DNA of 57,330 bases from an uncultured Planctomycetia bacterium (GTDB lineage Bacteria > Omnitrophota > Gorgyraeia > 2-01-FULL-45-10). The notes beneath the pieces were generated by a model that searched no databases, was not told where the DNA came from, and saw only the letters and a program-made list of their open reading frames with translations. Shown here piece after piece: positions 24,387-45,350 of the stretch (position 1 is its first letter; every line of letters starts with the position of its first letter). The translations under genes and the position numbers were made by a program. The DNA lies in contig CAZHPY010000001.1 of the NCBI GenBank assembly GCA_964534705.1, positions 1 to 57,330 on the forward strand. The letters are read 5' to 3'.

Positions 24387-25187
24387 TTAGTCTTTTTTAA
24401 ACACCAGAAGAATCGAGTGTCCGGCGAAAGCCGAAAATAAATAATAATTCATCATTCTGATCAACCGCGCCCACAAACGCTTGGATTTATACACGTTTGA
24501 TAAAAAAGGGTGAAGCAAGGATATCTCCTCCATCAGCCCCTTGCTCGGGTCAAATGCCTTCTTTGACAGCAGCTTAAACCCGAACGGCATTACCTTATTA
24601 ACCACAAAGTCTGCGCACAAAATAAACTGATAAAACGCCTGATCATCTTTTTTATTTTCTTCAAAAGAGTAGAGGCCGCATGTTTTTTTTAACCGCCGTA
24701 ACGGATTAAGGTTCGGGAAACTTAAGAACAAGCAGCCCCCTGGCTTCAGTACTCTTGCCGCTTCTGCAATAATCCCGTCAAAACCTTCCTGAAAGTGCTC
24801 GATAACCCCCAGCGACCAGTATCCATCAAAAAAAGAATCTGGAAAATTTAAGGCCCTGACGTCCTGAATAGACAGCTTTAATCCTGGAAACGCCTTCTTT
24901 GATCTTTCAATCGTGTTTTCCTCGAAATCCACTCCGTAAGCATCGAAGCCCCAAGATGAAAGGCCGAAGACTATGTTGCCGGCGCCACAACCCGCATCAA
25001 TGACTTTTCCTCCGGGCTTGATATATCTGCGCGCGCAAGCCCTGATAAACCAGTTGTTCTTCCCGTCTTCAACAAATGAATGCAGGTCCTGCGATCCCCA
25101 CAATAAGTTCCAGAACGCTTTTCCAGAAACTTTCTGAAGCTCGACTAATCTGTCATTTTTTGTGTCATAATATCTGCATCTATCCAT
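24387..25187 (-). CDS. Class I SAM-dependent methyltransferase
   Basis: 266-aa ORF with VIDAGCGAGNI, a YGVDF acidic loop and LKPGGCLFLSF. Confidence 0.85.
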   Translation of the reverse strand: MDRCRYYDTKNDRLVELQKVSGKAFWNLLWGSQDLHSFVEDGKNNWFIRACARRYIKPGGKVIDAGCGAGNIVFGLSSWGFDAYGVDFEENTIERSKKAFPGLKLSIQDVRALNFPDSFFDGYWSLGVIEHFQEGFDGIIAEAARVLKPGGCLFLSFPNLNPLRRLKKTCGLYSFEENKKDDQAFYQFILCADFVVNKVMPFGFKLLSKKAFDPSKGLMEEISLLHPFLSNVYKSKRLWARLIRMMNYYLFSAFAGHSILLVFKKD

Positions 25188-25218: not shown

Positions 25219-27135
25219 CTATATCAACACCTTTTCACCCATTATTGTCTTAAAGAAATCGGTCAGTCTCAAGGTAGCATTACCATCTAACGGCCCAACG
25301 TGTTCCTGCACATGCTTAAGGCCACGCGCGATCTGGGCCAGACGGAAATCATTGTCATAAATAAGCTTTTCAAATACAGGAGCGGCGTTCTCATCCGGAG
25401 AGATATGAACAACTCCCTTGTTTTCCAAGTAATCGAACCCCTGCCCTTCGAATCTTTCCAGTAATCCCTTGTACTGAATACTTACAACGGGGGTTCTTGC
25501 CAACATAGCTTGCCATATCGCAGTCGTTATAGGAACAGATACTATATCGGCCGCTGAACATAGAGAGAAAAGATTGTAATTATCGACTACCCGCCCCTTG
25601 CATCCCCACAACTTAATCCATTTTTTCACATCTTTTGTGGCCTGAAGAGGATGCGTTTTGACTATTAATTGTGCACCCTTAATGGCATTAACAGCCTGAC
25701 CTGTATTCTTAAAAAGTGCTTCGACGTCTCTTATTGTAAACGGACTGGCAGCGAAAAAAGAAATTAAAAGCACTATCGGTTTTTCAAACGACAACCCAAG
25801 ATCAGAACAAACTTTGCGCCTCGCTTCTTCCTTCGAGCTTATGACGGCCCTGTCAACGAGCGTATCTCCCACAGCGCATATGCGCTCTTTCCCATACTGT
25901 CCCAAGAAACTATTATAAAAAACATCTCCGGAAACGGCCATCCACTCCTGAGAACGCACAACCACGTTATTGTAAGCGTTCGAGGAAAGCGCATAATACG
26001 CCACTGTTGGTATCTTACGCTGACGGCAGATCAAGGTAACAGCCCTGGGCAGTTCCCAATCCTCAAAACAAACGACCATGTCGGGCTGACATCGTTCAAC
26101 CGCTCGTTTTGCAACTTCCACATAATAAGCAGAAAACCGGCCTCCTTCCAAACAGGAGTTTCTCAAGATAGGCTCGGCGTAAGGAAATATCGGTACGCCA
26201 TACCAACTATGTCCTAAGCGTAATGGAGCGTGCTTCTTTAATTGATCCCATCCGCGGCGAGCCGCGCCCTCCACGCTTCGTGTCAACTTAACTCCCTCTC
26301 TTGTATTTATCCACTCGTGGCTATAACTACATTTTACCCCGGCTCGTCTTAAATTTTCCGTTAAGGAAACCCTTTTTTCGGCGAGGAGATATATATCTGC
26401 ATCCAAATTTTGACGCAATGAAGGTAACGCCGCAACGAGCCTCTCCACCGAACGGTCGATCCATCCAATAAATAGAATGCGAGGGCGCGTCTTCTTCTCT
26501 GAAAAAATACCGCCCTCTACTTTAGACGGCAGTCGCTTAGCAAAAGAACGGATTAATAATCGATAATCCGGGATGCCTCTCCTGTAAGCCGTTAAACCAA
26601 AGAGAGACGTGAAGAGCCCGTGTCTCTGATCAAGAAGCGGCCCTTCTTTTGCCGCGACCGCTTTAACAATGCCAGCAACCGGTCCTCGGCCAATGGTCCG
26701 GACCGTATCAGGGGACTCTTTTTCGATCACGCCCTTGATAGTGTTAACATAGATCAAGTTATTAAAAAATAATGGGAGAAGCCATCGGAGCTCTATCGTA
26801 CTCAATAGCGGGATATCGCGATGCACTAAACCATATTCCATGCCTAATTCTTTAGACTGGGAATAAAGCGCGTCCGCGAAAGAATGGAGCGAGGAAAAAT
26901 CAACGCTGTTCCATGCGGCAACATTTTCTATTCCATAATTGTATCGCCGCAATCCTTCGTCCTTAACTTTTTCCAGGAAAAGAGCGCTACTGCAGATACC
27001 CCCCACCCCGTCAAGCCCGGAACGTTTTGATAAAAAAGCTAAATAAGAAAGCGCGATATCCTTTGCCTTGAAACGTAAGCCGCAGTGGTTACTATTGGCG
27101 AAAAAATCATCTGTGAAGAGAATTATTTTTTTCAT
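25219..27135 (-). CDS. Large orphan cytoplasmic protein whose C-terminal half is GT-B-like with an HP motif; candidate CMP-ulosonate (NulO)-dependent transferase
   Basis: 638-aa ORF with no TM segments. IVKTHPL (His codon at 25651-25653) is followed about 35 aa later by DIVSVPITTAIWQAMLARTPVVS. This resembles the HP/nucleotide-binding region of capsule-synthesis (KpsS/KpsC-like) and bacterial sialyltransferase GT-B enzymes. Recognised by eye only. Confidence 0.4.
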   Translation of the reverse strand: MKKIILFTDDFFANSNHCGLRFKAKDIALSYLAFLSKRSGLDGVGGICSSALFLEKVKDEGLRRYNYGIENVAAWNSVDFSSLHSFADALYSQSKELGMEYGLVHRDIPLLSTIELRWLLPLFFNNLIYVNTIKGVIEKESPDTVRTIGRGPVAGIVKAVAAKEGPLLDQRHGLFTSLFGLTAYRRGIPDYRLLIRSFAKRLPSKVEGGIFSEKKTRPRILFIGWIDRSVERLVAALPSLRQNLDADIYLLAEKRVSLTENLRRAGVKCSYSHEWINTREGVKLTRSVEGAARRGWDQLKKHAPLRLGHSWYGVPIFPYAEPILRNSCLEGGRFSAYYVEVAKRAVERCQPDMVVCFEDWELPRAVTLICRQRKIPTVAYYALSSNAYNNVVVRSQEWMAVSGDVFYNSFLGQYGKERICAVGDTLVDRAVISSKEEARRKVCSDLGLSFEKPIVLLISFFAASPFTIRDVEALFKNTGQAVNAIKGAQLIVKTHPLQATKDVKKWIKLWGCKGRVVDNYNLFSLCSAADIVSVPITTAIWQAMLARTPVVSIQYKGLLERFEGQGFDYLENKGVVHISPDENAAPVFEKLIYDNDFRLAQIARGLKHVQEHVGPLDGNATLRLTDFFKTIMGEKVLI

Positions 27136-27142
27136 TTTAAGC

Positions 27143-27784
27143 TCATTTTATGGCCACTGCTATCAGTTTGTGAGAGAAACACATAGCTGGAAAGAGTTTA
27201 AATAATATTCCACCTGTCGGAATGACCTCAATATGACCGAAACATTTTTCTAGCAGATCCTTAAGTTGCCCCGCGTCATAGAAGGTTACATGTGTAGGAT
27301 CGTCGCGTAGCATGCGCAAATTACGGTATACCACCGCGTTAATTATATCGTAAAAGCGCTTGATCGGATAATTAGGCGTCATTACTACTAATTTTCCGCC
27401 GGTTCTTAAAACTCGGTGCAATTCACTGATACACGCTGCCGATTTATGGGATAAGATATGCTCGATTACCTGATCGCTGATGACGAGATCGAAGCTTGAA
27501 TCCGGATAAGGCAACGGCCTGTTCTCATCAATAAGTAGCGCCCGCTCCCAGCCGATTTCCCGACACCTCTTTATGCGAAGTGATGAAATATCACAACCGA
27601 AAATATTATCGGCTCCATATCGATCGGATAAAAAGGAGAAATACTTACCATCTCCGCAGCCATGGTCCAAAACTGTCATGGGTTTACTGGGCACATGTTT
27701 ATCAAGAACGCGGACAAAACCATCCGCGACCATTCCTTTCATGGAACGTTCTATTGCGTATTTCTCAAAGTCTTGATGGCCCAT
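27143..27784 (-). CDS. Class I SAM-dependent methyltransferase
   Basis: 213-aa ORF with VLDHGCGDGKY, FDLVISDQVIEHI and LRTGGKLVV. Confidence 0.85.
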   Translation of the reverse strand: MGHQDFEKYAIERSMKGMVADGFVRVLDKHVPSKPMTVLDHGCGDGKYFSFLSDRYGADNIFGCDISSLRIKRCREIGWERALLIDENRPLPYPDSSFDLVISDQVIEHILSHKSAACISELHRVLRTGGKLVVMTPNYPIKRFYDIINAVVYRNLRMLRDDPTHVTFYDAGQLKDLLEKCFGHIEVIPTGGILFKLFPAMCFSHKLIAVAIK

Positions 27785-27796
27785 ATTATCCCTTAT

Positions 27797-28933
27797 TTAA
27801 AAATGTATATCGCAAAACTTCTTCTGGATAGACGTCTTCCAAAAAGAAGGCGACGAAAGCATCTTCATGAACATATTGGCGCTGTTACCGCGTCCAAACG
27901 AAAAATCCACCGAGCGGCGGACTATGCATTTATTCAAAGCAGCTGCGATCTCTTTTTCATCTTCTTTAACATTAAGAACCGAGTCATTCTCTATGCGCGA
28001 CGATTGCCTGGTGCCAATATTGATGCAGGGCACCCCGAATACCGCGGCTTCACGGATACCGGAACTCGAGTTCCCGATAATAAGATTGGCGTGCTTTAGA
28101 AGACTTATATAGTACTCAAAACGCAGAGAACAGAAAACACGAAAATTAGAGTTGTTCCTCAAAGGACCTAACGCGTTATAAACGACTTCCGACCCCTTAT
28201 CATTATTAGGCTCAATAACAACGAATTTCTTTTTAGAATGGAGCAAGGCGGAGACTACTGTTTTAATATTATCCGGGAGCATCGCGATCTCTGTCGTTAC
28301 TGGGTGATAACAAAAAATACCGTACTCCTCGAACGGAATATCATAACGTTTCTTTACTTTCTGTAAAGAAGGCAATAACCGTGACTTCATGATATCAACT
28401 TCCGGAGAACCTATTACGTGGATCGAATCCTGCGACTCCCCCAACTGAATAAGGCGTTTCCGGGAATTTTGATTAGCCACGCAATGAACATGAGATAGTT
28501 TCGACACAGAGTGCCGGATCAAGTCATCGACCGTACCGGAAAGCTCCCCTCCTTCTATATGGGCTACTAAGATATTATTCAGGACGCCTACGATCGCCCC
28601 GGCCAGCGCCTCAGCCCTGTCACCGTGGACGACTATCAAATCCGGACGAAAAACACGGACGTAGTTAGAAAGCCCCTGGATCGTATTGGCTACTATGAGG
28701 TCCATATCGGAGCTGGAGCTTTCCGTTTGGTTCATAAAAAGAAATACGTTCTTAAAATCTGTTTTCAGTATTTCTTCGTATGTCATCCCATGCCGTAAAA
28801 GGACGTGCATGCCAGTCGCAAATATCTTGCATTCGAACTTGCTCGAACGTTCCACTGTCTGCATTAGCGCCTTCAGTTTTCCAAAATCTGCCCTCGTTCC
28901 TGTTATAAAAAGGATATTTTTCTTTTTAGACAT
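27797..28933 (-). CDS. neuC: Hydrolysing UDP-sugar 2-epimerase (NeuC / LegG family)
   Basis: 378-aa ORF with ILFITGTRADFGKL, VHGDRAEALAGA and VAHIEGGELSGTVDD, typical of the hydrolysing 2-epimerase subfamily. Confidence 0.9.
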   Translation of the reverse strand: MSKKKNILFITGTRADFGKLKALMQTVERSSKFECKIFATGMHVLLRHGMTYEEILKTDFKNVFLFMNQTESSSSDMDLIVANTIQGLSNYVRVFRPDLIVVHGDRAEALAGAIVGVLNNILVAHIEGGELSGTVDDLIRHSVSKLSHVHCVANQNSRKRLIQLGESQDSIHVIGSPEVDIMKSRLLPSLQKVKKRYDIPFEEYGIFCYHPVTTEIAMLPDNIKTVVSALLHSKKKFVVIEPNNDKGSEVVYNALGPLRNNSNFRVFCSLRFEYYISLLKHANLIIGNSSSGIREAAVFGVPCINIGTRQSSRIENDSVLNVKEDEKEIAAALNKCIVRRSVDFSFGRGNSANMFMKMLSSPSFWKTSIQKKFCDIHF

Positions 28934-28962
28934 AATACCTCACATTAAAATTAAAAAATGCT

Positions 28963-30006
28963 CTATTTGATATCCTGCCAGGACAATTGAGTATTGACCG
29001 GGAGATCCCTATTGAACGCCTTCCCAAGGACATTCTCGAAATCCCGGGCTTTGATCGAACCGTTACCCGGCCTTTTGCACCAAATATTCTCAGGGCTCAG
29101 GACTTCACCCTTTTTCACATCTTTTATAGTAACAACACAGGCATAAGCAAAATTTATTGTTGGCTGCTCTTCCTTTAAAATGTCTTTTGACCCGCCTAAA
29201 GCAGCAAAGACCGCCCGTGAGCCATCAATGAGATCTTTAAGCTTTACTGGATCGATAGATAACGAGATATCTGGCCCGGGCCAGCTTTTATCTGACGTAA
29301 AATGCTTTTCCAATACCTTCGCACCCAGGGCAACCGCCGCAAAACATGTATAATTACCCGTCGAATGGTCGCTCAATCCCAAGATGGCGTCAGGAAAAGC
29401 CAAGGAAAGCTCTGATATCGCCCCTAGTCTCACCTTGTTATATGGCGTGGGATAGACAGAAGTACAATGCATCAGCACAAATGGGATACGGGCCATCCTG
29501 AGGATCTCCACGGCAGGCCGCACAGTCTCCACGCTATTCATTCCAGTGCTCAAGATTACAGGTTTTTTATACAAAGCAATGTGTTTTATCAACGGATAAT
29601 TATTGCACTCACCCGATCCGATCTTATATGCACAAACATCCATCTTCTCAAGACGTACTGCTGCCGCACGCGAAAAAGGCGTGGAGAGAAATATCATCCC
29701 CTTGGATTCCACGTATTTTTTTATCTTACGTTCCTCGACTTCGGTCAAAGCACACCTAGACATAATATTCCAGATGCTCTCTTTTGCATTACCAGGGATC
29801 ACATTATTAGGGATCATTTCATCCTCGATTACATGCGACTGGAATTTAACGCATTCGCACCCTGCCATATGAGCATCATCAACCATGCGGACAGCCTTTG
29901 CAAAACTGCCATTGTGATTGATCCCTATCTCAGCTATGATCAAAGGAGAATGGCCATTCCCTATGGTGCGGCCTCCGATAACCATCTCTTTTTTTATACC
30001 TGCCAT
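28963..30006 (-). CDS. neuB: Nonulosonic acid synthase (NeuB / LegI / PseI family) with a C-terminal SAF domain
   Basis: 347-aa ORF with PLIIAEIGINHNGS, GLSDHS, and a C-terminal SAF-like segment, VVTIKDVKKGEVLSPENIWCKRPGNG. Confidence 0.9.
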   Translation of the reverse strand: MAGIKKEMVIGGRTIGNGHSPLIIAEIGINHNGSFAKAVRMVDDAHMAGCECVKFQSHVIEDEMIPNNVIPGNAKESIWNIMSRCALTEVEERKIKKYVESKGMIFLSTPFSRAAAVRLEKMDVCAYKIGSGECNNYPLIKHIALYKKPVILSTGMNSVETVRPAVEILRMARIPFVLMHCTSVYPTPYNKVRLGAISELSLAFPDAILGLSDHSTGNYTCFAAVALGAKVLEKHFTSDKSWPGPDISLSIDPVKLKDLIDGSRAVFAALGGSKDILKEEQPTINFAYACVVTIKDVKKGEVLSPENIWCKRPGNGSIKARDFENVLGKAFNRDLPVNTQLSWQDIK

Positions 30007-30027
30007 GATCCTACCCTTAGCCGCCCT

Positions 30028-30672
30028 TCATTTAACCAATTCGACAAAATTATTCAATATCTGCAATCCTACCATAGCACTCTTTTCAGGATGGAACTGG
30101 CAACCGTAAATATTATTTTTATGAACAGCGGAACAAAATGCATTTCCGCCATAATCAGTAGTACTTAATATGTCACCGGCATCATACGGCTGCGCCGTAA
30201 AACTATGCACAAAATAAACATTGCTCTGATCTTGCATGTTATTAAATATAGTCCCGAGCCACCTATCTTTCTTTGGCTCATTTATTCTGTTCCATCCAAC
30301 ATGCGGTATCCTATCATTACAGCCTTTTTTCAGAGATAATCTCACTACCTTTCCATTTAGCAGACCCAAACCTTTTGTCAGGCCGAATTCCTCCCCCTCA
30401 CCCATTAACATCTGCATGCCCAGACAAATCCCCAAAAACGGCTTCCCGGTCTCAACGAACCGATAGATCGTATCAATAAGGCTGTATTTCTTTAAATTAT
30501 CCATCCCTGCCTTAAACGCCCCTACGCCCGGCAAGACCGCAGCGTCATACGAGAAGATATCTTTATTATCCCTGCTTAATGTCGGATCTGCCCCTACTTT
30601 TTTAAGCCCCATCAGTATACTTTTTACGTTTCCTATATCATAATCGATAACAAAGATGCGTTTTCTTTTCAA
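30028..30672 (-). CDS. HisH-like glutamine amidotransferase subunit, copy 2 (in the NulO cassette)
   Basis: 214-aa ORF with IFVIDYDIGNVKS, GICLGMQML, HVGWN and GCQFHPEKS. It is clearly divergent from copy 1. Confidence 0.9.
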   Translation of the reverse strand: MKRKRIFVIDYDIGNVKSILMGLKKVGADPTLSRDNKDIFSYDAAVLPGVGAFKAGMDNLKKYSLIDTIYRFVETGKPFLGICLGMQMLMGEGEEFGLTKGLGLLNGKVVRLSLKKGCNDRIPHVGWNRINEPKKDRWLGTIFNNMQDQSNVYFVHSFTAQPYDAGDILSTTDYGGNAFCSAVHKNNIYGCQFHPEKSAMVGLQILNNFVELVK

Positions 30673-31427
30673 ATTCTCACCTCTACGCTATTTCTACATA
30701 AACGATCCTTGATCTCGACGATCGAGGAAACATCATAATGCAGCATCGAAGCTACTGCTACGGCGTTAACCCCCGTGTTCAGTATCAGATCGCTGATCTG
30801 TTCCGGCGTGCCGGCGCCTCCGCTGGCAATAACCGGTATCGATACGCGTTCCGTCACCTTCTTTATGAGATCAACATCAAATCCTTTTTTCGTACCTTCC
30901 TGGTCAACGGAGGTCAAGAGTATCTCTCCGACGCCAAGGTCTTCAAGCCTCTTTACCCACTCTAAAACATCTACGCCGGTGCACTCTCTACCGCTGTCAA
31001 TATACGCTTCCCAGGAGTTCCCCTTCCTTTTGGCTTCGACTGAACCGACAATGCACTGGGAACCAAATATCCTTGAGGCTTCCTTTACAAAATCCGGCGT
31101 CTTTATAGCCTGTGTATTTATAGCCGTTTTATCCGCTCCGGCCCTTAAGGCTTTTTCGATATCGCCTATAGTCCTTAATCCTCCGCCTATCGTCAATGGC
31201 ACAAAAATCTCCTCGCAGGCTTTTTCAATCAAATGAAAGAGACCGTTCCTGTTGTATAGGCTCGCAACTACATCCATATATATTAATTCGTCAGCGCCAC
31301 CAGTATAATATTTGCGAGCAAAGTCTTCCGGCTTGCCTAAAACCCTGACCCCTTCCAGATGGATCCCTTTTACAAGATTAGGGCCTTTAATATCGAGCCG
31401 GGGGATTATCCTGATCTTCCTGTTCAT
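30669..31427 (-). CDS. HisF-like cyclase subunit, copy 2 (in the NulO cassette)
   Basis: 252-aa ORF with IIPRLDIKGPNLVKG, IGGGLRTIGD and IASGGAG. It has 4-nt overlaps with both neighbours. Confidence 0.9.
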   Translation of the reverse strand: MNRKIRIIPRLDIKGPNLVKGIHLEGVRVLGKPEDFARKYYTGGADELIYMDVVASLYNRNGLFHLIEKACEEIFVPLTIGGGLRTIGDIEKALRAGADKTAINTQAIKTPDFVKEASRIFGSQCIVGSVEAKRKGNSWEAYIDSGRECTGVDVLEWVKRLEDLGVGEILLTSVDQEGTKKGFDVDLIKKVTERVSIPVIASGGAGTPEQISDLILNTGVNAVAVASMLHYDVSSIVEIKDRLCRNSVEVRI

Positions 31428-32845
31428 TTTATATAGTGCCTCGCGCCCCTGAAACTACTATTGTCTCCGAAGTAGAGCTCTCTAAAATCGTTTATCATGG
31501 ATTCTGCTCTTGCCATATCTTTTGACGTATGCATATAGTGATCCGTTATAAGTTCTTTATTGGCGTCAAAAAGAAGGTTGTAAAATTTATCTTCGGGTAT
31601 GTCGGTAAAATTGACAGTGACAAGATCAGAGTTTTTAAAAAGAGTGAAGAAATCTTCGGCTCCGGAAATATATTTTTTCTTTATGGCTTCGTAATAAAGA
31701 TCGCAGCCCGGATAAGGCGTAACAGGCCTTACGGTTCGGAGCTGGTCATAAGTATTATACTTCTTTATAAGCTCCACATTGCTCCTGAGGGACTCTTCAG
31801 TGTCTCCTATATTGCCCCACAGGAAGTTAAGGCCAAGTCCTATGCCGATCCTTCCGGCAATTTCTGCGGCCCGTATATTCTGTCCGACAGTTGTCCTTTT
31901 TTTCATAAGGTCTAACACTGTCTGGTCAGAGGATTCCATTCCAAAATTGAGGAACTGGCAACCGCAATCTTTCAGGGCAACTGCAAGTTCTTCGTCAAAA
32001 AGATCTACCCTGGCATTGCAGGAAAATTTGATCTCCAAGCCCTTATCTTTTAAGGCGTCCCTGAATTCGTATAACCTTTTTTTTGAGAATATGAAAAGCT
32101 CGTCAAGCATAGTGAAATAGTTAACGCCGTAATTTCTTTTCAAAAAATCTATCTCTTTGATTACATTTTCCACGCTCCTGACTCGTATGCCATCCTCCAT
32201 CCTATAACAGAAATTACATCTATTTATACATCCCCTGCTCGATATCATGCCAAGCACAATATCTTTACTATCAGCGCGGAAAGGCTTAAGGCAGGATGTG
32301 TATTTATCCATCGGAAAAAGCGACCACTCCGGAAACGGAATAAGGTCAAGATTTTTTATGGGCTTACGCCTTTCATTCAAAACGGGTCGGCCATCTTGCA
32401 CATAAGCTATGCCTTTCACTTTTGCAAGATCGCCCCGGTTTTCCTTACATCGCACCAGTTCCGTGATCGTCTCCTCAGCTTCTCCTATTACAATGATATC
32501 TGCCTTTGTTTTCTTTAAAATATAATCATGGACAGGTGATGGCCCTGGCCCGCCGAGAATAAGCCATGCGTTTTTCTTGTGAAGACCTACCATCTCGCAG
32601 AGCGGCACTATCGTCTCAATGAACCGCGATGCCAGAAAGCCTATTCCTATCATGTCGAAGTCATTATTATCCAGAAAAACGGCAAGCTCATCATTTGTAT
32701 AATGAAATACGTCCTGGCAGTACACTTCAACATCTATACCGTTATTCCTGAGTATGCCAGAGAGATAGGCCGGTCCCAGAGGAAAATGATTATCATCCTG
32801 ATAAAGGTCGTGTATTATAAAAAGAACTTTTGGTCGCCTATTCAT
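31424..32845 (-). CDS. B12-binding-domain radical SAM enzyme (class B), copy B, embedded in the NulO cassette
   Basis: 473-aa ORF. The N-terminal cobalamin-binding-like domain contains KVLFIIHD...LILGGPGP. The radical SAM motif is SSRGCINRCNFC. Confidence 0.85.
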   Translation of the reverse strand: MNRRPKVLFIIHDLYQDDNHFPLGPAYLSGILRNNGIDVEVYCQDVFHYTNDELAVFLDNNDFDMIGIGFLASRFIETIVPLCEMVGLHKKNAWLILGGPGPSPVHDYILKKTKADIIVIGEAEETITELVRCKENRGDLAKVKGIAYVQDGRPVLNERRKPIKNLDLIPFPEWSLFPMDKYTSCLKPFRADSKDIVLGMISSRGCINRCNFCYRMEDGIRVRSVENVIKEIDFLKRNYGVNYFTMLDELFIFSKKRLYEFRDALKDKGLEIKFSCNARVDLFDEELAVALKDCGCQFLNFGMESSDQTVLDLMKKRTTVGQNIRAAEIAGRIGIGLGLNFLWGNIGDTEESLRSNVELIKKYNTYDQLRTVRPVTPYPGCDLYYEAIKKKYISGAEDFFTLFKNSDLVTVNFTDIPEDKFYNLLFDANKELITDHYMHTSKDMARAESMINDFRELYFGDNSSFRGARHYIK

Positions 32846-33542
32846 ATTGCGCCTTAAGCAGTAATTCTGCCAGTTTCATATCAAGCTCGCTGTCTATGTC
32901 AATAGACCTGCCGGCCGGCATTATATATGCGAATGTTCTTCTGCCAAAAAACCCTTTAACCTTTTTAAGATAATCTATATACGAGGCGTAGATGACACCG
33001 TTTAAGCGATAAGACGCAGGGAATTCCTGCCTGTTCTTATTTTTCATTTTCTGACTCATGAAATCCTTCATGCACCCATCAGGCGGAAGCAGGTTTACCC
33101 ATGAAGGGGGATAACCCGTATCGCATACCGAGATAATAGCCTGCGCATCCTTAACAAACATTTCCTCTATTGAATTATCGATATCCTCGACGGCCCTAAG
33201 GGGTGACGTAGGTTGTAAAAGCACTATTATATCGAACAGCTCATGCTTCTTCCTGAAAAAATCGGTCGTATGCAATATAACATCTACCATGGGAGTTTTA
33301 TCTCCGGCTAATTCTACTGGCCTGACAAATGGAACGAGTGCGCCATATTTAAGCGAGATGCTTGCTATCTCCTCATCATCCGTAGAAACTACAGTCTTAT
33401 CAAGATACTTGCTTTGGAGCGCGCTTTCTATGGTCCACGCAATAACTGGTTTGCCACAAATTTCCCGGATATTTTTTCTCGGAACGCCCTTAGACCCGCC
33501 TCTCGCAGGAATAATACCCAATATCTTCTTGCCCTTATACAT
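32838..33542 (-). CDS. neuA: CMP-nonulosonic acid synthetase (acylneuraminate cytidylyltransferase, NeuA/LegF family)
   Basis: 234-aa ORF with the N-terminal motif LGIIPARGGSKGVPRKNIREICGKPVIAWTI and the later LLQPTSPLR. Confidence 0.9.
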   Translation of the reverse strand: MYKGKKILGIIPARGGSKGVPRKNIREICGKPVIAWTIESALQSKYLDKTVVSTDDEEIASISLKYGALVPFVRPVELAGDKTPMVDVILHTTDFFRKKHELFDIIVLLQPTSPLRAVEDIDNSIEEMFVKDAQAIISVCDTGYPPSWVNLLPPDGCMKDFMSQKMKNKNRQEFPASYRLNGVIYASYIDYLKKVKGFFGRRTFAYIMPAGRSIDIDSELDMKLAELLLKAQYE

Positions 33543-33559: not shown

Positions 33560-34774
33560 CTATTCAACCTGATGCTTAAGGCACCACTCCCCGTTCGTGC
33601 CCTTGCGCCACAGATGCTCTGAGCGCGCGTTGTCAATAACCTGCCAGAACTCTTCTTCGGATATACCTATGTATGACAGGAACTCTTTAAAATATCTTTT
33701 TGGGAATTCCCCATCGTATTTCTTGACGAGTGCCACACCTTCTTCACGCGTTATATGGCCACGTCTTATTTCCTGTGAGGCGTCATAGGAAGCCCTACCT
33801 ATCCCGAATTTTATAAATGATGTAAAATAATGAAAACCATCTATCTTATCATCGAGGCTGGAATACTTAGAATAAGTCCCTTCAGTCCGTTCCGGATTTA
33901 CCTGAAAACCGCAATTCTCCGACGCATAGTAGAAATTTGACTGAGAATCCCATTTTACATAATAACTGAGGTAATGAACCTCGGTCTTATTTTTCATGAC
34001 TTCATCCATATCTACGGGAAGGTAGAGATTCAGTTCGGAGCGCGGTATTCCGTGTTCGGTCAGCTCGTCAATAGGTAATCCTGACAATTTTATATCAAAG
34101 ATCTTTTCTTTTTCAACGGCAAAATACCTTGATTCCATTAGCGGGGAGTTATTATTGGCTACGGTCGAGTTAATTTCGGCTGGGTTTTCACCATAAATTA
34201 TAAGAGGTATCTTCTTTTCGACCGATAATCGCGGGGATACATTCTTCTGGCCTATTATGAAAGGCTGAAATGGATGAACCAGGTTTTTAAAGGCCAGCTG
34301 CGTCAGTTTTTTGTGAATTTTACCGTTAGGGGTAACCAGTATGTTGTCAAAGCCGGTATGGATCAGATTCTGAAAGTTTCGCCACCCTATATCGGTATAG
34401 ATGTGCGGCGCCCAAGTAACGGTCAGCGGGTTCATTCCATATTTGTACTTCAAAAGATGGGCAGCAAAACAGCTGTCTTTCCCTCCGCTGCTGGCCACTA
34501 TAACATCATAGTATCCGTCATTCCTACGATGCTTGCCAAGAAGCTCTTTTAACAGATTCTCTCTTGCCGTCCAATCGGTCCTGTCTTTTATCTCACCGAA
34601 TCGGCATGCATGGCATACGTCATCTTCATCAAAAGTCAAAGTCGGTTTCCTGTCCGATCTTTGATGCCTTGTCTCTACGACCGCCGAAGGCACCTGATTT
34701 GACATAACGCATTTCTTGCAAAATTTAACTTCTGGCGGGAGACCCCACTTGACTTTAGTTTGGTTAGTTGCCAT
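33560..34774 (-). CDS. N-acetyl sugar amidotransferase (PseA / WbuX / WbpG family), copy 2
   Basis: Contains PPEVKFCKKCVMSNQ...CHAC and the PP-loop VASSGGKDS. I set the start at MATNQTK (34774), which avoids a 61-nt overlap with the upstream gene. The track ORF extends to 34864. Confidence 0.85.
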   Translation of the reverse strand: MATNQTKVKWGLPPEVKFCKKCVMSNQVPSAVVETRHQRSDRKPTLTFDEDDVCHACRFGEIKDRTDWTARENLLKELLGKHRRNDGYYDVIVASSGGKDSCFAAHLLKYKYGMNPLTVTWAPHIYTDIGWRNFQNLIHTGFDNILVTPNGKIHKKLTQLAFKNLVHPFQPFIIGQKNVSPRLSVEKKIPLIIYGENPAEINSTVANNNSPLMESRYFAVEKEKIFDIKLSGLPIDELTEHGIPRSELNLYLPVDMDEVMKNKTEVHYLSYYVKWDSQSNFYYASENCGFQVNPERTEGTYSKYSSLDDKIDGFHYFTSFIKFGIGRASYDASQEIRRGHITREEGVALVKKYDGEFPKRYFKEFLSYIGISEEEFWQVIDNARSEHLWRKGTNGEWCLKHQVE

Positions 34775-34803: not shown

Positions 34804-35784
34804 TTAACTTCTCTTTTTTCCAACAAATATAAACTGTTCCGGAGTAGTAAAACCGGATGAACATAAAAATCTATCTACCATGTTGATCCACTTCGCAACT
34901 TTATGCTCCATGTCTACTGATTCCATCCTTAAGCCTCCTATTATCCTGTCAAAAAAAGAAAAAGTATTCTTGAATTCCAGCTCTTCAAAATTAGCCTTGA
35001 GGGCAGGATACATATCGGAAAAAGCCGCCTCATTGTCCAGCGGCGACTGAACATTCTTCCCGGAAGAATCCTTATAATCAAACTCATTCTTTATCCCTTC
35101 CAATAGTCTTTTTAGCTCCTCCTCATCTTCAGGTAGCTTGACAGGTTGATAGTAATTATTTCCCAGCGCCAATAACATCCTGATAGAATGTATTATTGCG
35201 GCATCCGCATCCCTTAACCTTATCCTTGTCGGTTCGGAAACAAAAATAATGCCTCTCGCAGTAAGTAACGATGATACCTTGCGCAGCACCGCATCCTGAT
35301 CTCCGAAATGGTGAAGGGACGAAGAAAATACGGCCATATCGAATTCATGTTTGCTATTGAACTCATGAATATTCGAACAGATATACTCAAGTCTGCCCCT
35401 GTGTTCCTTATAAGGGTCTTTTCCCGCCACATCTCGCGCTATTTCCACACATTTTTTTGAAATGTCTATGCCTGTCACATTATATCCATAACGGGCAAGT
35501 TCCAATGAAATGTGGCCCGGACCGCACGCAACCTCCAGAACGTTAACATCGCTGGGTTCAGTTTTTAAATAATTACTGATAATCTTTCTTATATAGCTAA
35601 CTACTTCTCCAAACAGCATTTGAGCGTAAGCTGCGTCGCGCCATGGATTATTATAAAACCATTCACACCTACCTGCCGTCCTCAGGTCCGGAACGTGCCC
35701 ATGGCTTACCCTCTCTTCTATCTGGCTGTCAAAAGACCTGGATTCTATCTTCAGTTTTTCCGAATAGTTATTATCATCTTTCAT
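34804..35784 (-). CDS. Class I SAM-dependent methyltransferase
   Basis: 326-aa ORF with VLEVACGPGHISLEL, a TGIDIS acidic loop and LTARGIIFVSE. Its start overlaps the upstream radical SAM stop by 1 nt. Confidence 0.85.
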   Translation of the reverse strand: MKDDNNYSEKLKIESRSFDSQIEERVSHGHVPDLRTAGRCEWFYNNPWRDAAYAQMLFGEVVSYIRKIISNYLKTEPSDVNVLEVACGPGHISLELARYGYNVTGIDISKKCVEIARDVAGKDPYKEHRGRLEYICSNIHEFNSKHEFDMAVFSSSLHHFGDQDAVLRKVSSLLTARGIIFVSEPTRIRLRDADAAIIHSIRMLLALGNNYYQPVKLPEDEEELKRLLEGIKNEFDYKDSSGKNVQSPLDNEAAFSDMYPALKANFEELEFKNTFSFFDRIIGGLRMESVDMEHKVAKWINMVDRFLCSSGFTTPEQFIFVGKKRS

Positions 35785-36785
35785 TAGATCCCCCTCGCTG
35801 CCGTTAATTCATTTTCAATAAAAAAGGTCTTTTTATCTTTTTTAAATACGTTTGCAAATTCGATCCAGCCATTGCAGGACTTGCATAATTTAAGCTCATT
35901 CCACCTGGAATGCAGATGTTTATCTATCATATCTTTTCTTAATTCCGATCCTGTCCATATATCTGATAGAGATTGTTGACTTAAATTACCAAACTTGTTT
36001 TCGTCAAAAAAATCCGCAAAGCAGGAACATACGTTTCCCTTATGGCTTATATTCGGATATAGCCATAAATAAAGGCATGGATACCGCTCTATGCTGACCT
36101 TTTCTATAAAATCAAACTTATCGCCCCAATTGTGCAGAGTTTGACTGTAGGTAAAGACATTGTAATCATTCCAGAATCTTTCAAACTCATCATAATAAGG
36201 CTTGTTCTCTGCGGTATTCAAGAATTGGACACCTATCATGACATCTATATTATTTCTATCCCTCAGTTTTATAGCTTGTATGACATTATTCAGGATCTTC
36301 GAAAAATCCTGATAATTAGTCAACTTTGTGTAAAGGTCTGGATTTATCGTCTGCAACGAAAAAATAAGCTGGTCTACACCGCTCCTTAGAACTTTTAAAG
36401 CCAGGTCTTCGCTGAGTATAAGGCCGTTCGTGTTCAAGGTTATATAATGCAGCCTGTTGTTCTCTTTGATACCGGCAATGATATTAAAGAAATCCGGGTG
36501 TAGAATATTTTCGCCTCTTGTCCCAAACTGAAAATATGTAGGCACATCTTTAGCATCGTTTAACAAGCGCTTTATGATATCCATATCTATAAATTCTTTC
36601 GGAACATTTACAGTGCTCTGCGGGCAGTAACTGCATCGAAATGTACAGTGCCCGCAAAGGTTAAGTGCAAAACCATGCGGCTGGCTTATCTGATATTTTA
36701 TGTTCTCAATCAAATCCGGTTTTATAATACCGTTCAATATAAGTTTCTCACGCTTCTTGTCTAAAGAGCTCTGTTTTTTATTCAA
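35784..36785 (-). CDS. Radical SAM enzyme with a C-terminal twitch/SPASM-like Cys-rich domain
   Basis: 333-aa ORF with the CxxxCxxC motif LCGHCTFRCSYCPQ. The C-terminal GNVCSC...GNLSQQSLSDIW...CKSCNGW resembles an auxiliary-cluster domain. Confidence 0.8.
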   Translation of the reverse strand: MNKKQSSLDKKREKLILNGIIKPDLIENIKYQISQPHGFALNLCGHCTFRCSYCPQSTVNVPKEFIDMDIIKRLLNDAKDVPTYFQFGTRGENILHPDFFNIIAGIKENNRLHYITLNTNGLILSEDLALKVLRSGVDQLIFSLQTINPDLYTKLTNYQDFSKILNNVIQAIKLRDRNNIDVMIGVQFLNTAENKPYYDEFERFWNDYNVFTYSQTLHNWGDKFDFIEKVSIERYPCLYLWLYPNISHKGNVCSCFADFFDENKFGNLSQQSLSDIWTGSELRKDMIDKHLHSRWNELKLCKSCNGWIEFANVFKKDKKTFFIENELTAARGI

Positions 36786-36809
36786 TATGCACGCTCCCTT
36801 TATTCCATT

Positions 36810-38177
36810 TTAATCAGTATGTTTCATAACATCTATACTTAAACCCATCTTATCCCTGCGGTCATCATATCTAATATCATCTGAAACGATAGCATCCTTA
36901 AAATATAGCTTTGCCAGAATCTCTTTTCTTTCTACGCCGAAATCGGTTAAAGTGAATTTTTGATGTGATGCTTTGTATTTTATAAGAAATTCTGCAACAT
37001 CATTGGAAACGGTTGTAGTATTGGCCCAACGTATGTTAACAAGATAGAACCCTTGCTCTTTTCTGAACCGCAGCCTTTCAGGAACGTAAAATCTCTTTCC
37101 CGTCTCTAACTCCTTATAAAAATTTGGGTCGTGTACAAGCTTATAAGGCCTGATGAAACTATTTTTCTCCTGCATCAGCTGGTCGGCCTCATTCAAATAC
37201 CCGTGGTAAGCGCGTGCGGACATCCGGCAACCGGTCTGGCATATGTCAACGTAATCGCAGCCTTCACAGCCTTTATATCTATAGCTTTCGTCATGCCACT
37301 TGATCATATTCTCGTATGTCTTGAAGATTCCTATCTTGAATACGTTGCCATAGCTCTCGGCTTCATGGACACAAGCATGGGCTTCACCATTTGCATTGAT
37401 ACCTATAACGTGTCCGGACTGCGCAGGACATCCTCTCCCAACAAAATCGCTGTATCTTTCCAGATCGCCCAACAGACAAAGAGGATAACTGACAAGCGTC
37501 CCTATCATCATACCTGTATCATTCTTTATCTTGACCAGCTGGTCAAGAACATAGATGGCGTCTTCCTTTAGCATCTCAAATTCTGTTTTAAAAGCATTGG
37601 TTATATTTACAGACGGGACTGTACGAGTCCCGAATATCTTCTGGCATCCCAGGTCATGGCATAGCTTACCGGTGCCGTAAACCTGGTCCCTGTTCATTTT
37701 TGAGACTATCATATTAACGCTTATCCTGAACCTGTTCCGGACCGCAAGTTGGATGGCATTTATTATTCTTTCAAAAGCCCCATCCTGTCTGACGAGATAA
37801 TCGTTCGTTTTCGGATCAAAAGAATTAAGGCTTGTAAGAAAATGGTCTAACCCCGCATCGGACAATCTTTTAATCCTGTCTTCAGTCGCAAGCATCAGGT
37901 TAGAGTTACAGCTCACCGATATATTATTTTTCGTCAACTTTTTTATGGCGTATTCCAGCAGATCGAATCTGGACATTGGCTCACCGCCGCTTAAAACCAC
38001 ATGAAAGATACCGGCCTCAACAAACATCTCAACGAGCCTGTCGACCATCTCGTTTGTCATCGAAAGTGTCTTAGACCCTTCTTCCCGCCAAAAATTGTAA
38101 CAATGCCTGCATTTAAGGTTACAAGCATCGGTTATCTCAAGATTTATAGCTGAAGGAGCTTTAAATATATATTTCAT
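36810..38177 (-). CDS. Radical SAM / SPASM-domain enzyme with a roughly 110-aa C-terminal extension
   Basis: 455-aa ORF with LEITDACNLKCRHCYN at the N-terminus. The SPASM-type Cys pattern is CPAQSG...ACVHE...CEGCDYVDICQTGC. A non-Cys tail follows, encoded at about 36810-37145. Confidence 0.85.
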   Translation of the reverse strand: MKYIFKAPSAINLEITDACNLKCRHCYNFWREEGSKTLSMTNEMVDRLVEMFVEAGIFHVVLSGGEPMSRFDLLEYAIKKLTKNNISVSCNSNLMLATEDRIKRLSDAGLDHFLTSLNSFDPKTNDYLVRQDGAFERIINAIQLAVRNRFRISVNMIVSKMNRDQVYGTGKLCHDLGCQKIFGTRTVPSVNITNAFKTEFEMLKEDAIYVLDQLVKIKNDTGMMIGTLVSYPLCLLGDLERYSDFVGRGCPAQSGHVIGINANGEAHACVHEAESYGNVFKIGIFKTYENMIKWHDESYRYKGCEGCDYVDICQTGCRMSARAYHGYLNEADQLMQEKNSFIRPYKLVHDPNFYKELETGKRFYVPERLRFRKEQGFYLVNIRWANTTTVSNDVAEFLIKYKASHQKFTLTDFGVERKEILAKLYFKDAIVSDDIRYDDRRDKMGLSIDVMKHTD

Positions 38178-40327: not shown

Positions 40328-40969
40328 TTACCCTATTTTAGTAGCTCTGATCAAATAACCCGTGGTCAGCTCTTCTTTATACCTTGTCCAACGGTCAAAA
40401 AACAGTATAGTAGGCGCAATCGAAATAAAAATAACCCGGAATAACTTCATCCCAAAAGACAATTTCCGTGCATCATTATAATAGTTCAAAAGATCCAATA
40501 CCACGGCCACGATCCCGCCGCGAGGAGCGATCTCCTGCACTGTAAATCCAGCTTCTTTGAACTCTTTATGTATTTTGGCCGGCGTCCAACGATGAAAATC
40601 AGCTGGATCCGCGTGAACCGGGTATAGGAATGGCATGGAAGCAACGATATGCCCGGACGGTTTAAGCAAACGCACGCATTCCTTTAAAACGCAGCCAGGA
40701 TTTTCAACATGCTCGAGAACGTCGGTCATAACAATCCAATCATAAGAAGCATCTGCCACTGGCACGGATTCAGCACTGCAAAGAAAATCGGGTTGTGTAG
40801 CCGGATCTGAATTTACATATTCCCAGGAGTAGGTCCTGTCTAACGGCGGACAAAAAGAACCGCGCTTATTGTGCTTTTTCCCTCCAACGTCAAGAACACG
40901 CCCGGAAAAAGGAATTCGGCCCAAAAAATGGTCTAAGTAATACCTTGTCGCGCTGATAAAGCGAGCCAC
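40328..40969 (-). CDS. Class I SAM-dependent methyltransferase (Methyltransf_11-like)
   Basis: 213-aa ORF with VLDVGG, DWIVMTDVLEHVENP and LKPSGHIV. Confidence 0.8.
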   Translation of the reverse strand: MARFISATRYYLDHFLGRIPFSGRVLDVGGKKHNKRGSFCPPLDRTYSWEYVNSDPATQPDFLCSAESVPVADASYDWIVMTDVLEHVENPGCVLKECVRLLKPSGHIVASMPFLYPVHADPADFHRWTPAKIHKEFKEAGFTVQEIAPRGGIVAVVLDLLNYYNDARKLSFGMKLFRVIFISIAPTILFFDRWTRYKEELTTGYLIRATKIG

Positions 40970-44112: not shown

Positions 44113-44180
44113 TGAACATATTCTATCAGACAGCAGAGAAAAGTCAATTAATTATATGATATTATTAGCATATAATATTA
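44113..44180 (-). promoter_or_regulatory. AT-rich gap with an inverted repeat and TATAAT-like boxes upstream of the regulator gene; candidate promoter/operator
   Basis: ATATTAT (44159-44165), 6 nt, ATAATAT (44172-44178) form a perfect 7-bp inverted repeat. The minus strand also shows TATAAT and TAGAAT hexamers before the ATG at 44112. Confidence 0.3.
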
Positions 44181-45350
44181 GGGCAGATAGAGCTTAGAAT
44201 ATGTTATGAGGGAATTCAGGCCGCAAAGAAGAAGAAATGTAACATAATAGGCATTTGACACAAAATAAAGCCATCTATTTACCTTAAGATAGGTGATCCC
44301 CTTTATGATAAAATAAAGCACAAATGGCGCATAAAAAAGGGTTATCCTGCCCCCTGTGAACGGGTACTTCTTAAGGATCCCTAAGATAAACAGCTCGATA
44401 AAGATGACCAACCCTATGGAATCTATGTCCCAAACCTTGAATTTACTTCTCTTCAAGGCTTTAATTCCGCCTATAAACAGCGGTAATACAAATAAAGGTA
44501 TCAGGACAGAAGCAAATCTTATGAATATCTTCCCTTTGCCGAACCACAATGTCGTAAGTTTGCGCACACCTTCGCTTATAGAACTGATGAATGAGCCAAA
44601 AGAGCTTGTGCTTATGAAATAGTCGTCCCAATATGAGAACAGGGGTCCGGTAGAAAGCGTATGCCGCATATCAAAATAATAAACAAATGTCAAAAACACC
44701 AAAGATAATAACGTATATAGGCATAAGACCCCGGTTAACCTTGCATCCCTGCTTGAAATGAGGAAAAAATTATATATTACGATCCAGAAAAGAAAAAAAC
44801 TGCTGTAGGACACCAAAATAGTGAACGGTAAAACAAGGGTAAAAAAAATAAAACCCTTTGAGGGCGCCCTTGCCGTGAGCTCCCGCTGGTTTATAAAATA
44901 CAGGCAAAAAATACCTGCCACCAAAAGGTCCATGGAATAGTGTTTCAGCTCCGCTGCGTAATAACTGAAAGAATAGCTGCAGGCGATCGAAAGGACAGCA
45001 AGTAGCGCTCCCCACTTGTCCGCGATCTCTATGCTATACACCTTTAACCACACGAAAAACGCGAGGAACATGCTCAATAAAGGAAAAAGCCTTAGCGCAA
45101 GAGGGTCGTAAATGAATTGCTCCGCGAACTTGCTGATCGCCATGAGATACATACGAGGAAAGACCTGGCTATTACTGAGAGGGCCCAGGATCTCCGGGAC
45201 CTTAAGACCCTTTATATTCTCAAGAATAAAATTTTCATCGAGCCATAAAGGCCGGCAAGAAAAATAGTGCAAAAAACATAATGACAGGAAAAATACGGTA
45301 CAAAGGATAAGCAGGTATCTAGAACATCTCATGAATGACTCTCCATCCAT
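44178..45350 (-). CDS. Polytopic GT-C-fold-like membrane glycosyltransferase (PMT_2/ArnT-like)
   Basis: 390-aa hydrophobic ORF with an acidic first-loop motif, PLWLDENFILE. It is the tandem partner of the next gene. Confidence 0.5.
   Translation of the reverse strand: MDGESFMRCSRYLLILCTVFFLSLCFLHYFSCRPLWLDENFILENIKGLKVPEILGPLSNSQVFPRMYLMAISKFAEQFIYDPLALRLFPLLSMFLAFFVWLKVYSIEIADKWGALLAVLSIACSYSFSYYAAELKHYSMDLLVAGIFCLYFINQRELTARAPSKGFIFFTLVLPFTILVSYSSFFLFWIVIYNFFLISSRDARLTGVLCLYTLLSLVFLTFVYYFDMRHTLSTGPLFSYWDDYFISTSSFGSFISSISEGVRKLTTLWFGKGKIFIRFASVLIPLFVLPLFIGGIKALKRSKFKVWDIDSIGLVIFIELFILGILKKYPFTGGRITLFYAPFVLYFIIKGITYLKVNRWLYFVSNAYYVTFLLLCGLNSLITYSKLYLP

Follow-up and report, generated by a model that had tools for sequence, protein, structure and literature searches.

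A radical SAM/SPASM enzyme with an adjacent methyltransferase as a conserved, putative sugar-tailoring module of ulosonic acid gene clusters

What do two radical S-adenosylmethionine (SAM) enzymes do in the middle of a bacterial surface-polysaccharide locus, and is their substrate a sugar or a peptide? The question is raised by contig CAZHPY010000001.1 of an uncultured Planctomycetia bacterium, of which 57,330 nucleotides (nt) were analyzed (positions 1–57330; the window, i.e., the whole stretch, whose numbering is used for the locus). Three adjacent genes at positions 34804–38177 of the minus strand, the strand which carries every sizeable open reading frame (ORF) over the whole 57 kb, encode a radical SAM/SPASM enzyme (rSAM-A), a second radical SAM enzyme (rSAM-B), and a class I SAM-dependent methyltransferase of 326 amino acids. 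A first-pass annotation, made from the sequence letters, had proposed that this trio edits a nucleotide sugar or the nonulosonic acid (NulO) made next door. The three ORFs are present where it had placed them, and both radical SAM enzymes are very probably involved in the tailoring of a sugar or ulosonate rather than in peptide maturation. The trio does not hold as a unit: what recurs is rSAM-A together with an adjacent methyltransferase from one of three unrelated classes, and rSAM-A marks a conserved module, as yet uncharacterised, that is found in the ulosonic acid clusters of many phyla.

The evidence for this association comes from genomic linkage. Species-representative genomes were scanned for rSAM-A, and the 57 loci obtained were searched by tblastn with the proteins of the window over 10 kb on either side. 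A NeuB-type synthase was found in 44 of the 57 loci, a cytidine monophosphate (CMP)-NulO cytidylyltransferase in 45, and one or the other in 49; the exceptions lacking markers lie mostly on short or truncated contigs. Methyltransferases are similarly frequent, with a TylF-type enzyme in 31 loci, a homologue of the 326-residue methyltransferase in 10, and at least one of these two classes in 41, while a third class is present in seven loci, including a Prochlorococcus locus without any other marker. The distance between rSAM-A and the methyltransferase gene is no more than 100 bp in approximately 25 loci, and the homologues of the 326-residue enzyme directly adjoin rSAM-A in eight (L020, L028, L030, L032, L038, L040, L041, and L047). 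A radical SAM enzyme with a B12-binding domain (B12-radical SAM; 15/57, up to three per locus), NeuC (14/57), and the amidotransferase WbuX (11/57) are less frequent. The linkage to NeuB and NeuA, for which a test in related genomes had been suggested, is thereby borne out for most loci; that to an amidotransferase holds for the 11 loci with WbuX and not as a constant flank. A second test, in which the neighbouring ORFs were clustered all against all without bias, yielded sugar-pathway families only, i.e., a short NeuB, a CBS-NeuB fusion, short-chain dehydrogenases/reductases (SDR; 17 loci), NeuC, DegT aminotransferases (13 loci), WbuX, KpsC/KpsS-like Capsule_synth transferases (11 loci), and a KdsC-like phosphatase of the HAD family.

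As a control, metagenomes were scanned for relatives of rSAM-B, most of them distant (23–29% identical), which provided 45 loci with a minimum length of 8 kb. NeuB was present in one of these and the cytidylyltransferase in one; neither rSAM-A nor TylF was found in any of the 45. Because of this control (1/45), the NulO linkage can be regarded as specific to the rSAM-A and rSAM-B orthologue groups, and not as a property of radical SAM/SPASM proteins at large, and the difference between 44–45 of 57 loci and 1 of 45 supports that part of the original proposal which concerned sugar tailoring. Among the control loci (L074–L146), 15–16 of the 45 encode B12-binding radical SAM proteins without NulO genes, a separate multi-radical-SAM association.

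The rSAM-A family comprises 434 homologue clusters, typically with 50–68% identity over the full length, whose names read "radical SAM/SPASM domain-containing protein" or are obviously automatic labels. The 57 loci are derived from at least 14 phylum-level lineages. Carriers include Omnitrophica (the source of the best genome match in the scan, a metagenome-assembled genome (MAG) with 67% identity), Campylobacterales, Desulfobacterota, Chloroflexi, Nitrospinota, Krumholzibacteriota, Latescibacterota, Planctomycetota, Prochlorococcus, a Thermoplasmata archaeon, and Alpha-, Beta-, and Gammaproteobacteria, among them Magnetospirillum sp., Azospirillum tabaci, and many single-cell genomes of Pelagibacteraceae. 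No homologue was found in plasmid and phage collections. One homologue with 55% identity (P0057) is filed under the eukaryote Anaeramoeba flamelloides and probably originates from a bacterial symbiont or a contaminant.

The composition of these loci also bears on the stage at which the enzymes act. In the closest loci (L009, L066, L021, L048, and L058) the order is rSAM-A, TylF, WbuX, and in the window the slot of TylF is filled by rSAM-B and the 326-residue methyltransferase, which behave as an exchangeable tailoring cassette. A tie of this methyltransferase to WbuX, as would be expected for an N-methyl-acetamidino group, is not supported as a general rule because most loci with the methyltransferase have no WbuX. 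Two unusual forms of NeuB were noted: a short one of approximately 280–296 residues without a SAF domain (20/37; in rSAM-A loci such as L013, L035, L053, and L065), and a fusion of approximately 750 residues comprising CBS, NeuB, and TIM-barrel parts in nine rSAM-A loci (L022, L023, L025, L027, L033, L039, L042, L056, and L062). Since none of these forms reaches the curated cut-off for either NeuB or PseI, the sugars from such loci may perhaps not be the classical neuraminic, legionaminic, or pseudaminic acids. The divergent short NeuB might use an unusual aldose, which would suit an alternative in which the enzymes do their work ahead of the nine-carbon stage. Their substrate would then be a nucleotide-hexosamine precursor or a different sugar within the repeat unit, and they would operate either as DesII/AprD4-like deaminases or dehydratases or as dehydrogenases feeding an aminotransferase. 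DesII and BlsE are indeed among the structural neighbours, and DegT aminotransferases and SDRs occur in some rSAM-A loci. However, the genes linked most tightly are those for the cytidylyltransferase and NeuB, and not those for dehydratases or aminotransferases, and minimal loci contain NeuB, the cytidylyltransferase, rSAM-A, a methyltransferase, and nothing else. We therefore consider this alternative to be rather improbable.

With respect to the proteins, the radical SAM model PF04055 (cut-off 29.5 bits) recognizes both rSAM-A (90.1 bits) and rSAM-B (61.4 bits). The sequence of rSAM-A includes DACNLKCRHC and CEGCDYVDICQTGC, and the CNLKCRHC motif and SPASM Cys pattern that had been read from it are both present. 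An alignment of 29 homologues contains ten invariant Cys residues, three for the SAM-cleaving cluster and seven in the SPASM region, which follow the pattern C234 / C250-x13-G-x4-C269 / C304-x2-C307-x5-C313-x3-C317. The usual eighth SPASM Cys is missing, so that rSAM-A has the signature of the SPASM subfamily with the exception of the final Cys; the seven auxiliary residues would be sufficient for two auxiliary clusters. The Pfam SPASM model PF13186 is below threshold on the rSAM-A of the window, yet it matches many of its homologues, and it does recognize rSAM-B (42.5 bits). The AlphaFold (AF2) model of rSAM-A is of high quality (predicted local distance difference test, pLDDT, 88; predicted template-modelling score, pTM, 0.89), and the closest solved structures are those of SuiB, SkfB, PqqE, and the anaerobic sulfatase-maturating enzyme (anSME), with which it shares the core and the SPASM Cys signature at 15–20% identity and template-modelling (TM) scores of approximately 0.5–0.6. 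It differs from these enzymes in lacking the eighth Cys and an N-terminal peptide-recognition (RRE) domain, in being embedded in sugar clusters with no peptide gene or sulfatase nearby, and in a unique C-terminal domain of approximately 115 residues. This domain is conserved in all homologues and has no match in Pfam or among PDB sequences. The best profile matches of the whole protein among PDB sequences are PqqE (E value 1.4e-19) and the cytosylglucuronate decarboxylase BlsE (E value 2e-17).

Some homologues of rSAM-A carry the automatic labels "heme synthase" or "PqqE". Both were rejected on score and context: the NirJ, AhbD, and PqqE models give best scores of 79–95 bits versus equivalog cut-offs of 381–515, and no heme or pyrroloquinoline quinone genes are present in the neighbourhoods of the window or of the rSAM-A loci. 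For both rSAM-A and rSAM-B, the scores of all curated NCBIfam models stay far from the respective cut-offs. The possibility that the two enzymes are recent duplicates was likewise rejected, as they share just 22% identity, limited to the core.

rSAM-B begins with a TTG codon, a start identical to that of the public protein P0121, and contains the CGHCTFRCSYC sequence together with the auxiliary-cluster-like region previously noticed near its C-terminus. Because exactly four auxiliary Cys residues are invariant, rSAM-B is of the twitch type, with a single predicted auxiliary cluster. By profile comparison its top PDB match is BtrN (PDB: 4m7t; E value 2e-20), the 2-deoxy-scyllo-inosamine dehydrogenase of butirosin synthesis, which acts on a carbohydrate-like carbinol; both have CX3CX2C and a single auxiliary cluster of the form C...C...CX2C, and the twitch domains align residue by residue, including both Cys pairs. 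In a model with a pLDDT of 86, the Foldseek ranking is BtrN followed by BlsE and DesII, all of which act on sugars or sugar-like substrates. The likeness is one of sequence and predicted fold: identity is approximately 18%, rSAM-B is longer by approximately 80 residues and has an N-terminal helical extension, and it is encoded in a nonulosonate/polysaccharide locus whereas BtrN belongs to an aminoglycoside cluster. rSAM-B is rare, with 13 close homologues and three representative clusters above 370 bits within a large superfamily of proteins of approximately 330 residues. Its orthologues were found independently, and those of their contigs which are long enough to judge also hold rSAM-A, a methyltransferase, a B12-radical SAM enzyme, and NeuB/cytidylyltransferase genes; rSAM-B is thus an accessory found in some rSAM-A clusters only. 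Among its relatives, a search for domain fusions as functional hints returned only tandem radical SAM/SPASM duplications, and source names were uninformative.

Might rSAM-A, rSAM-B, or both nevertheless mature a peptide or protein, whether a peptide made by the ribosome and modified after translation (RiPP), a sulfatase, a protein of the glycan pathway, or a flagellin, and be merely co-located with sugar genes? The nearest solved structures of rSAM-A all modify peptides and the topology of its C-terminal domain resembles that of RRE domains, two points which speak for such a role and against sugar tailoring, and a Maf-type flagellin glycosyltransferase lies near one locus (L008). However, this domain has no detectable sequence similarity to PqqD (hhalign probability 1.5% against one PqqD sequence), all NCBIfam maturase models are far under their cut-offs, and anSME itself gives a weak profile match to rSAM-A (E value approximately 5e-6). 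As the first-pass annotation had stated, the flanking gaps leave no room for a precursor gene. The spacing is 26 nt between the glycosyltransferase gene and rSAM-A and 24 nt between rSAM-A and rSAM-B; the methyltransferase ATG and the rSAM-B stop codon share 1 nt (spacing −1 nt), and 29 nt separate the methyltransferase stop (34804) from the likely ATG start of WbuX at 34774. Furthermore, a six-frame search for ORFs of 18–100 residues, mostly outside large ORFs, found no conserved precursor-like small ORF in approximately 60 homologous loci, and the recurrent neighbour families of rSAM-A include neither a sulfatase nor any other candidate for a protein substrate, so that neither a RiPP system nor an anSME is indicated. 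We accordingly regard peptide or protein maturation as highly improbable. The sole recurrent small ORFs, apart from artefacts of rRNA operons, encode a helix-turn-helix protein of 78–96 residues in four loci (L032, 5050–5301; L044, 9768–10004; L063, 9753–9989; L022, 1823–2113). In three Pelagibacteraceae loci its gene immediately precedes rSAM-A, in an Azospirillaceae locus it lies approximately 50 bp upstream, and the protein may be a local regulator.

If the substrate is a sugar, which reaction would be catalyzed? Gene content, cluster-binding motifs, conserved genomic linkage, the absence of a precursor gene, and the similarity to BtrN are observations from which a pathway can be proposed. 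SAM would be cleaved reductively at the CX3CX2C cluster of each enzyme, and the resulting 5'-deoxyadenosyl radical would take a hydrogen from a carbinol carbon of the sugar. The electron would then pass to the auxiliary cluster or clusters to give a keto-sugar, in the manner of BtrN and anSME. The methyltransferase would fix or elaborate this product as an O-methyl hemiketal or enol, as a C-methyl group beside the carbonyl, or as an N-methyl group after transamination, a choice which is speculation, and the neighbouring B12-radical SAM enzyme would put a C-methyl group on an unactivated carbon. The constant pairing of rSAM-A with methyltransferases from three unrelated classes suggests that methylation acts on the group which rSAM-A creates, or else creates the group which rSAM-A attacks. 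As a whole, the explanation which we favour, with moderate confidence, is that of a tailoring cassette for a CMP-activated NulO of the legionaminic type, in which radical oxidation of a carbinol is coupled to methylation. The substrate we infer may be the free or the CMP-linked NulO, or a hexosamine precursor, and the position attacked and the reaction type are similarly conditional; dehydrogenation in particular is put forward tentatively, at somewhat less than an even chance.

Genomic evidence identical to that just described would also be compatible with radical sugar epimerases of the NeoN, HygY, or AviX12 type, which would invert one stereocentre of the NulO, e.g., to a 4-epi or 8-epi form, with methylation as an independent event. 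Sugar epimerases with twitch and SPASM domains exist, and epimeric legionaminic acids of unknown origin occur in nature. NeoN and HygY need a Cys as the hydrogen donor. Oxidation is favoured over epimerisation because neither family keeps an invariant Cys beyond the cluster ligands which could serve in hydrogen return, and because the nearest relative of rSAM-B is the dehydrogenase BtrN. Epimerisation would, moreover, leave the consistent adjacency of a methyltransferase unexplained, and we consider it unlikely.

Besides the structural likeness of rSAM-A to peptide-modifying enzymes, several points weigh against the proposed oxidation coupled to methylation of a NulO. The chemistry is inferred from distant relatives, with 15–20% identity, and a simple dehydrogenation does not entail a tie to methylation. 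Most rSAM-A loci come from MAGs and single-cell genomes. In Maridesulfovibrio hydrothermalis (locus L002; FO203522.1, 2352503–2373858), a pair of rSAM-A and TylF is encoded, and neither NeuB nor a NulO cytidylyltransferase is found up to 10 kb away. The pair adjoins a ferredoxin-thioredoxin-reductase-like gene and genes for an ArnA/ArnD-like formyltransferase and deacetylase, and kdsA, kdsC, and lptC are located 5–9 kb away; the substrate here could be 3-deoxy-D-manno-octulosonic acid (Kdo). Because this pair sits near kdsA, kdsC, and lptC and away from NeuB, the substrate class may be that of the 3-deoxy-2-ulosonic acids in general, or something else. With the substrate worded so as to admit a related ulosonic acid, a radical-initiated oxidation or rearrangement by the rSAM-A/methyltransferase pair of a CMP-activated nonulosonic acid, trapped by methylation and new to glycobiology, is given nearly an even chance.

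How does this arrangement compare with known systems? To our knowledge, the radical SAM enzymes described as acting on sugars, including BtrN and the B12-dependent GenK, all belong to antibiotic pathways, in which their scaffolds are hexoses or aminocyclitols, and none is reported for NulOs or cell-surface glycans. Among them, DesII, BlsE, NeoN, HygY, AprD4, and SpeY resemble the enzymes described here in tailoring a sugar or nucleotide-sugar, and DesII, BlsE, and SpeY are among the matches; they differ in that the context here is a NulO or cell-surface glycan cluster. GenK and GenD1 (class B) share the B12-binding plus radical SAM architecture with the two B12-type genes of the window, which are far under every curated family cut-off and lie in a NulO context. 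Conversely, all described NulO routes known to us use conventional two-electron enzymes, and we know of no radical SAM enzyme in the described legionaminic and pseudaminic acid pathways. This includes the tailoring by the Ptm proteins of Campylobacter jejuni (acetamidino formation and N-methylation), a system which is similar in having a WbuX/PseA-type amidotransferase and a methyltransferase beside NeuB, NeuC, and cytidylyltransferase genes; here up to four radical SAM enzymes are added. What would be new, as far as sequence can indicate, is radical SAM sugar tailoring of a known kind acting on a new class of substrate, by a conserved and uncurated family.

A full-text literature search for radical SAM enzymes in connection with nonulosonic, legionaminic, or pseudaminic acids or NeuB, with most subscription journals outside its coverage, returned no paper on such enzymes, in agreement with the earlier statement that no glycan pathway with this arrangement was known. 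Related observations do exist. The lipopolysaccharide locus of Legionella pneumophila contains one uncharacterised radical SAM ORF (PMC3766260), and in Campylobacter fetus subsp. testudinum two phase-variable radical SAM ORFs, CFT03427_1545 and CFT03427_1558, are located among methyltransferase, ATP-grasp, SDR, and formyltransferase genes (PMC6321876). Methylated and "higher-carbon" CMP-ulosonic acids, with genes unassigned, have been detected by mass spectrometry in Magnetospirillum gryphiswaldense (bioRxiv 10.64898/2026.04.20.719630). A link of rSAM-A to these compounds was not established: Magnetospirillum sp. 64-120 has rSAM-A, but the nearest relatives of its protein are from MAGs, and none is from M. 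gryphiswaldense.

In the window, the trio is surrounded by a surface-polysaccharide locus which exceeds 57 kb (Table 1). Profile searches with Pfam and NCBIfam confirm that the neighbours are sugar enzymes, as had been read from the letters. The count of two radical SAM enzymes was correct for the trio and incomplete for the locus, in which two B12-binding radical SAM genes had been missed, bringing the number to four. A NeuB-type synthase, a NeuC-type epimerase, and a CMP-NulO cytidylyltransferase lie together at 27797–33542, the gene set of a nonulosonate locus. The NeuB scores 360 bits, just under the NeuB_NnaB cut-off and well above its own PseI score, and the route would lead to a CMP-activated NulO of the legionaminic/neuraminic type. 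The family assignments of WbuX and its HisH/HisF partners imply a predicted conversion of an N-acetyl to an acetamidino group.

Table 1. Positions of genes and protein regions in the window, in the order of the minus strand
Feature	Positions	Strand	Evidence and remarks
Double GT4-type glycosyltransferase, 705 aa	38204–40321	−	Pfam Glyco_trans_1_4 and Glycos_transf_1, two stretches each; directly upstream of rSAM-A
rSAM-A, radical SAM/SPASM, 455 aa	36810–38177	−	Pfam Radical_SAM, E value 2.4e-25
rSAM-A CX3CX2C motif (C19, C23, C26), ligands of the SAM-cleaving [4Fe-4S] cluster	38100–38123	−	Invariant in 29 homologues
rSAM-A SPASM region, seven invariant Cys	37227–37478	−	Alignment of 29 homologues; aligns with the PqqE SPASM domain
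rSAM-A C-terminal domain (RLRFRKE..FYLVNIRWAN)	36813–37160	−	Conserved in all homologues; three strands then three helices in the model
rSAM-B, twitch radical SAM, 333 aa	35784–36785	−	Pfam Radical_SAM, E value 1.5e-16; SPASM, E value 7.9e-11
rSAM-B CX3CX2C motif (C47, C51, C54)	36624–36647	−	Invariant in 12 homologues
rSAM-B twitch region, four invariant Cys (C237, C255, C301, C304)	35874–36077	−	Homologue alignment; alignment with the BtrN twitch domain
Class I SAM-dependent methyltransferase, 326 aa	34804–35784	−	Pfam Methyltransf_31/11/25/23, E values down to 2e-18
WbuX-type N-acetyl sugar amidotransferase (makes acetamidino groups)	33560–34774	−	TIGR03573, 355 bits (cut-off 203)
CMP-nonulosonate cytidylyltransferase (PseF/NeuA-like)	32838–33542	−	Pfam CTP_transf_3, E value 3e-24; TIGR03584, 165 bits, below cut-off
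B12-binding radical SAM enzyme, class B, probable C-methyltransferase	31424–32845	−	Pfam B12-binding and Radical_SAM
HisF-like (WbuZ) and HisH-like glutamine amidotransferase pair, WbuX partners	30028–31427	−	TIGR03572, 278 bits; TIGR01855, 214 bits
NeuB-type nonulosonate synthase	28963–30006	−	Pfam NeuB, E value 1.5e-71
NeuC-type hydrolysing UDP-sugar 2-epimerase	27797–28933	−	TIGR03568, 402 bits, above cut-off
Second B12-binding radical SAM enzyme	22226–23698	−	Pfam B12-binding and Radical_SAM; 25% identical to the copy at 31424–32845

The wider window also contains rmlABCD-type genes, two genes of the UDP-glucose-dehydrogenase type, an ABC exporter, several glycosyltransferases, a Wzy-like protein, and an MBOAT protein. 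No excess of terminator-like sites was found. Class I methyltransferases are encoded at least six times (40328–40969, 34804–35784, 27143–27784, 24387–25187, 23709–24377, and 16680–17627), which suggests that the glycan made by the locus is heavily methylated. Positions 5286–6687 encode another HisF/HisH-like pair, whose members have 39% and 36% identity with those of the first. No second WbuX gene accompanies it in the 57-kb window, and the adjoining ORF of 505 residues (3772–5289) has no Pfam match, is not WbuX-like, and has the appearance of a membrane protein. Further large ORFs without a Pfam match at the thresholds used are found at 25219–27135, 55198–57327, 15217–16656, 44178–45350, 8189–9316, and 13626–14450. 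The ORF of 638 residues without a Pfam match bears no resemblance to the PFTS_polysacc protein from locus L007.

Nonulosonic acids cap the surface glycans and flagellins of bacteria and archaea, and shape phage recognition, immune recognition, and surface charge. A radical SAM plus methyltransferase module in NulO clusters implies a modification which lies outside the current catalogues of NulO structures and outside pathway predictors, and it is broadly distributed, in 57 species-level genomes and hundreds of metagenomic protein clusters, including those of abundant marine lineages. For radical SAM enzymology the module would represent a new substrate class, and it offers candidate genes for unexplained NulO masses, e.g., methylated or higher-carbon CMP-ulosonic acids, compounds to which no gene link is made here. 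Two cultured carriers of rSAM-A, Azospirillum tabaci W712 and Maridesulfovibrio hydrothermalis, allow direct testing. If the proposal is correct, sialic-acid-like surface sugars of keto-, methyl-ketal-, or C-branched form, with C-methylation by B12-radical SAM enzymes, would make up a hidden class across at least 14 phyla, and the organisms carrying such sugars would include those represented by single-cell genomes of SAR11 and Prochlorococcus.

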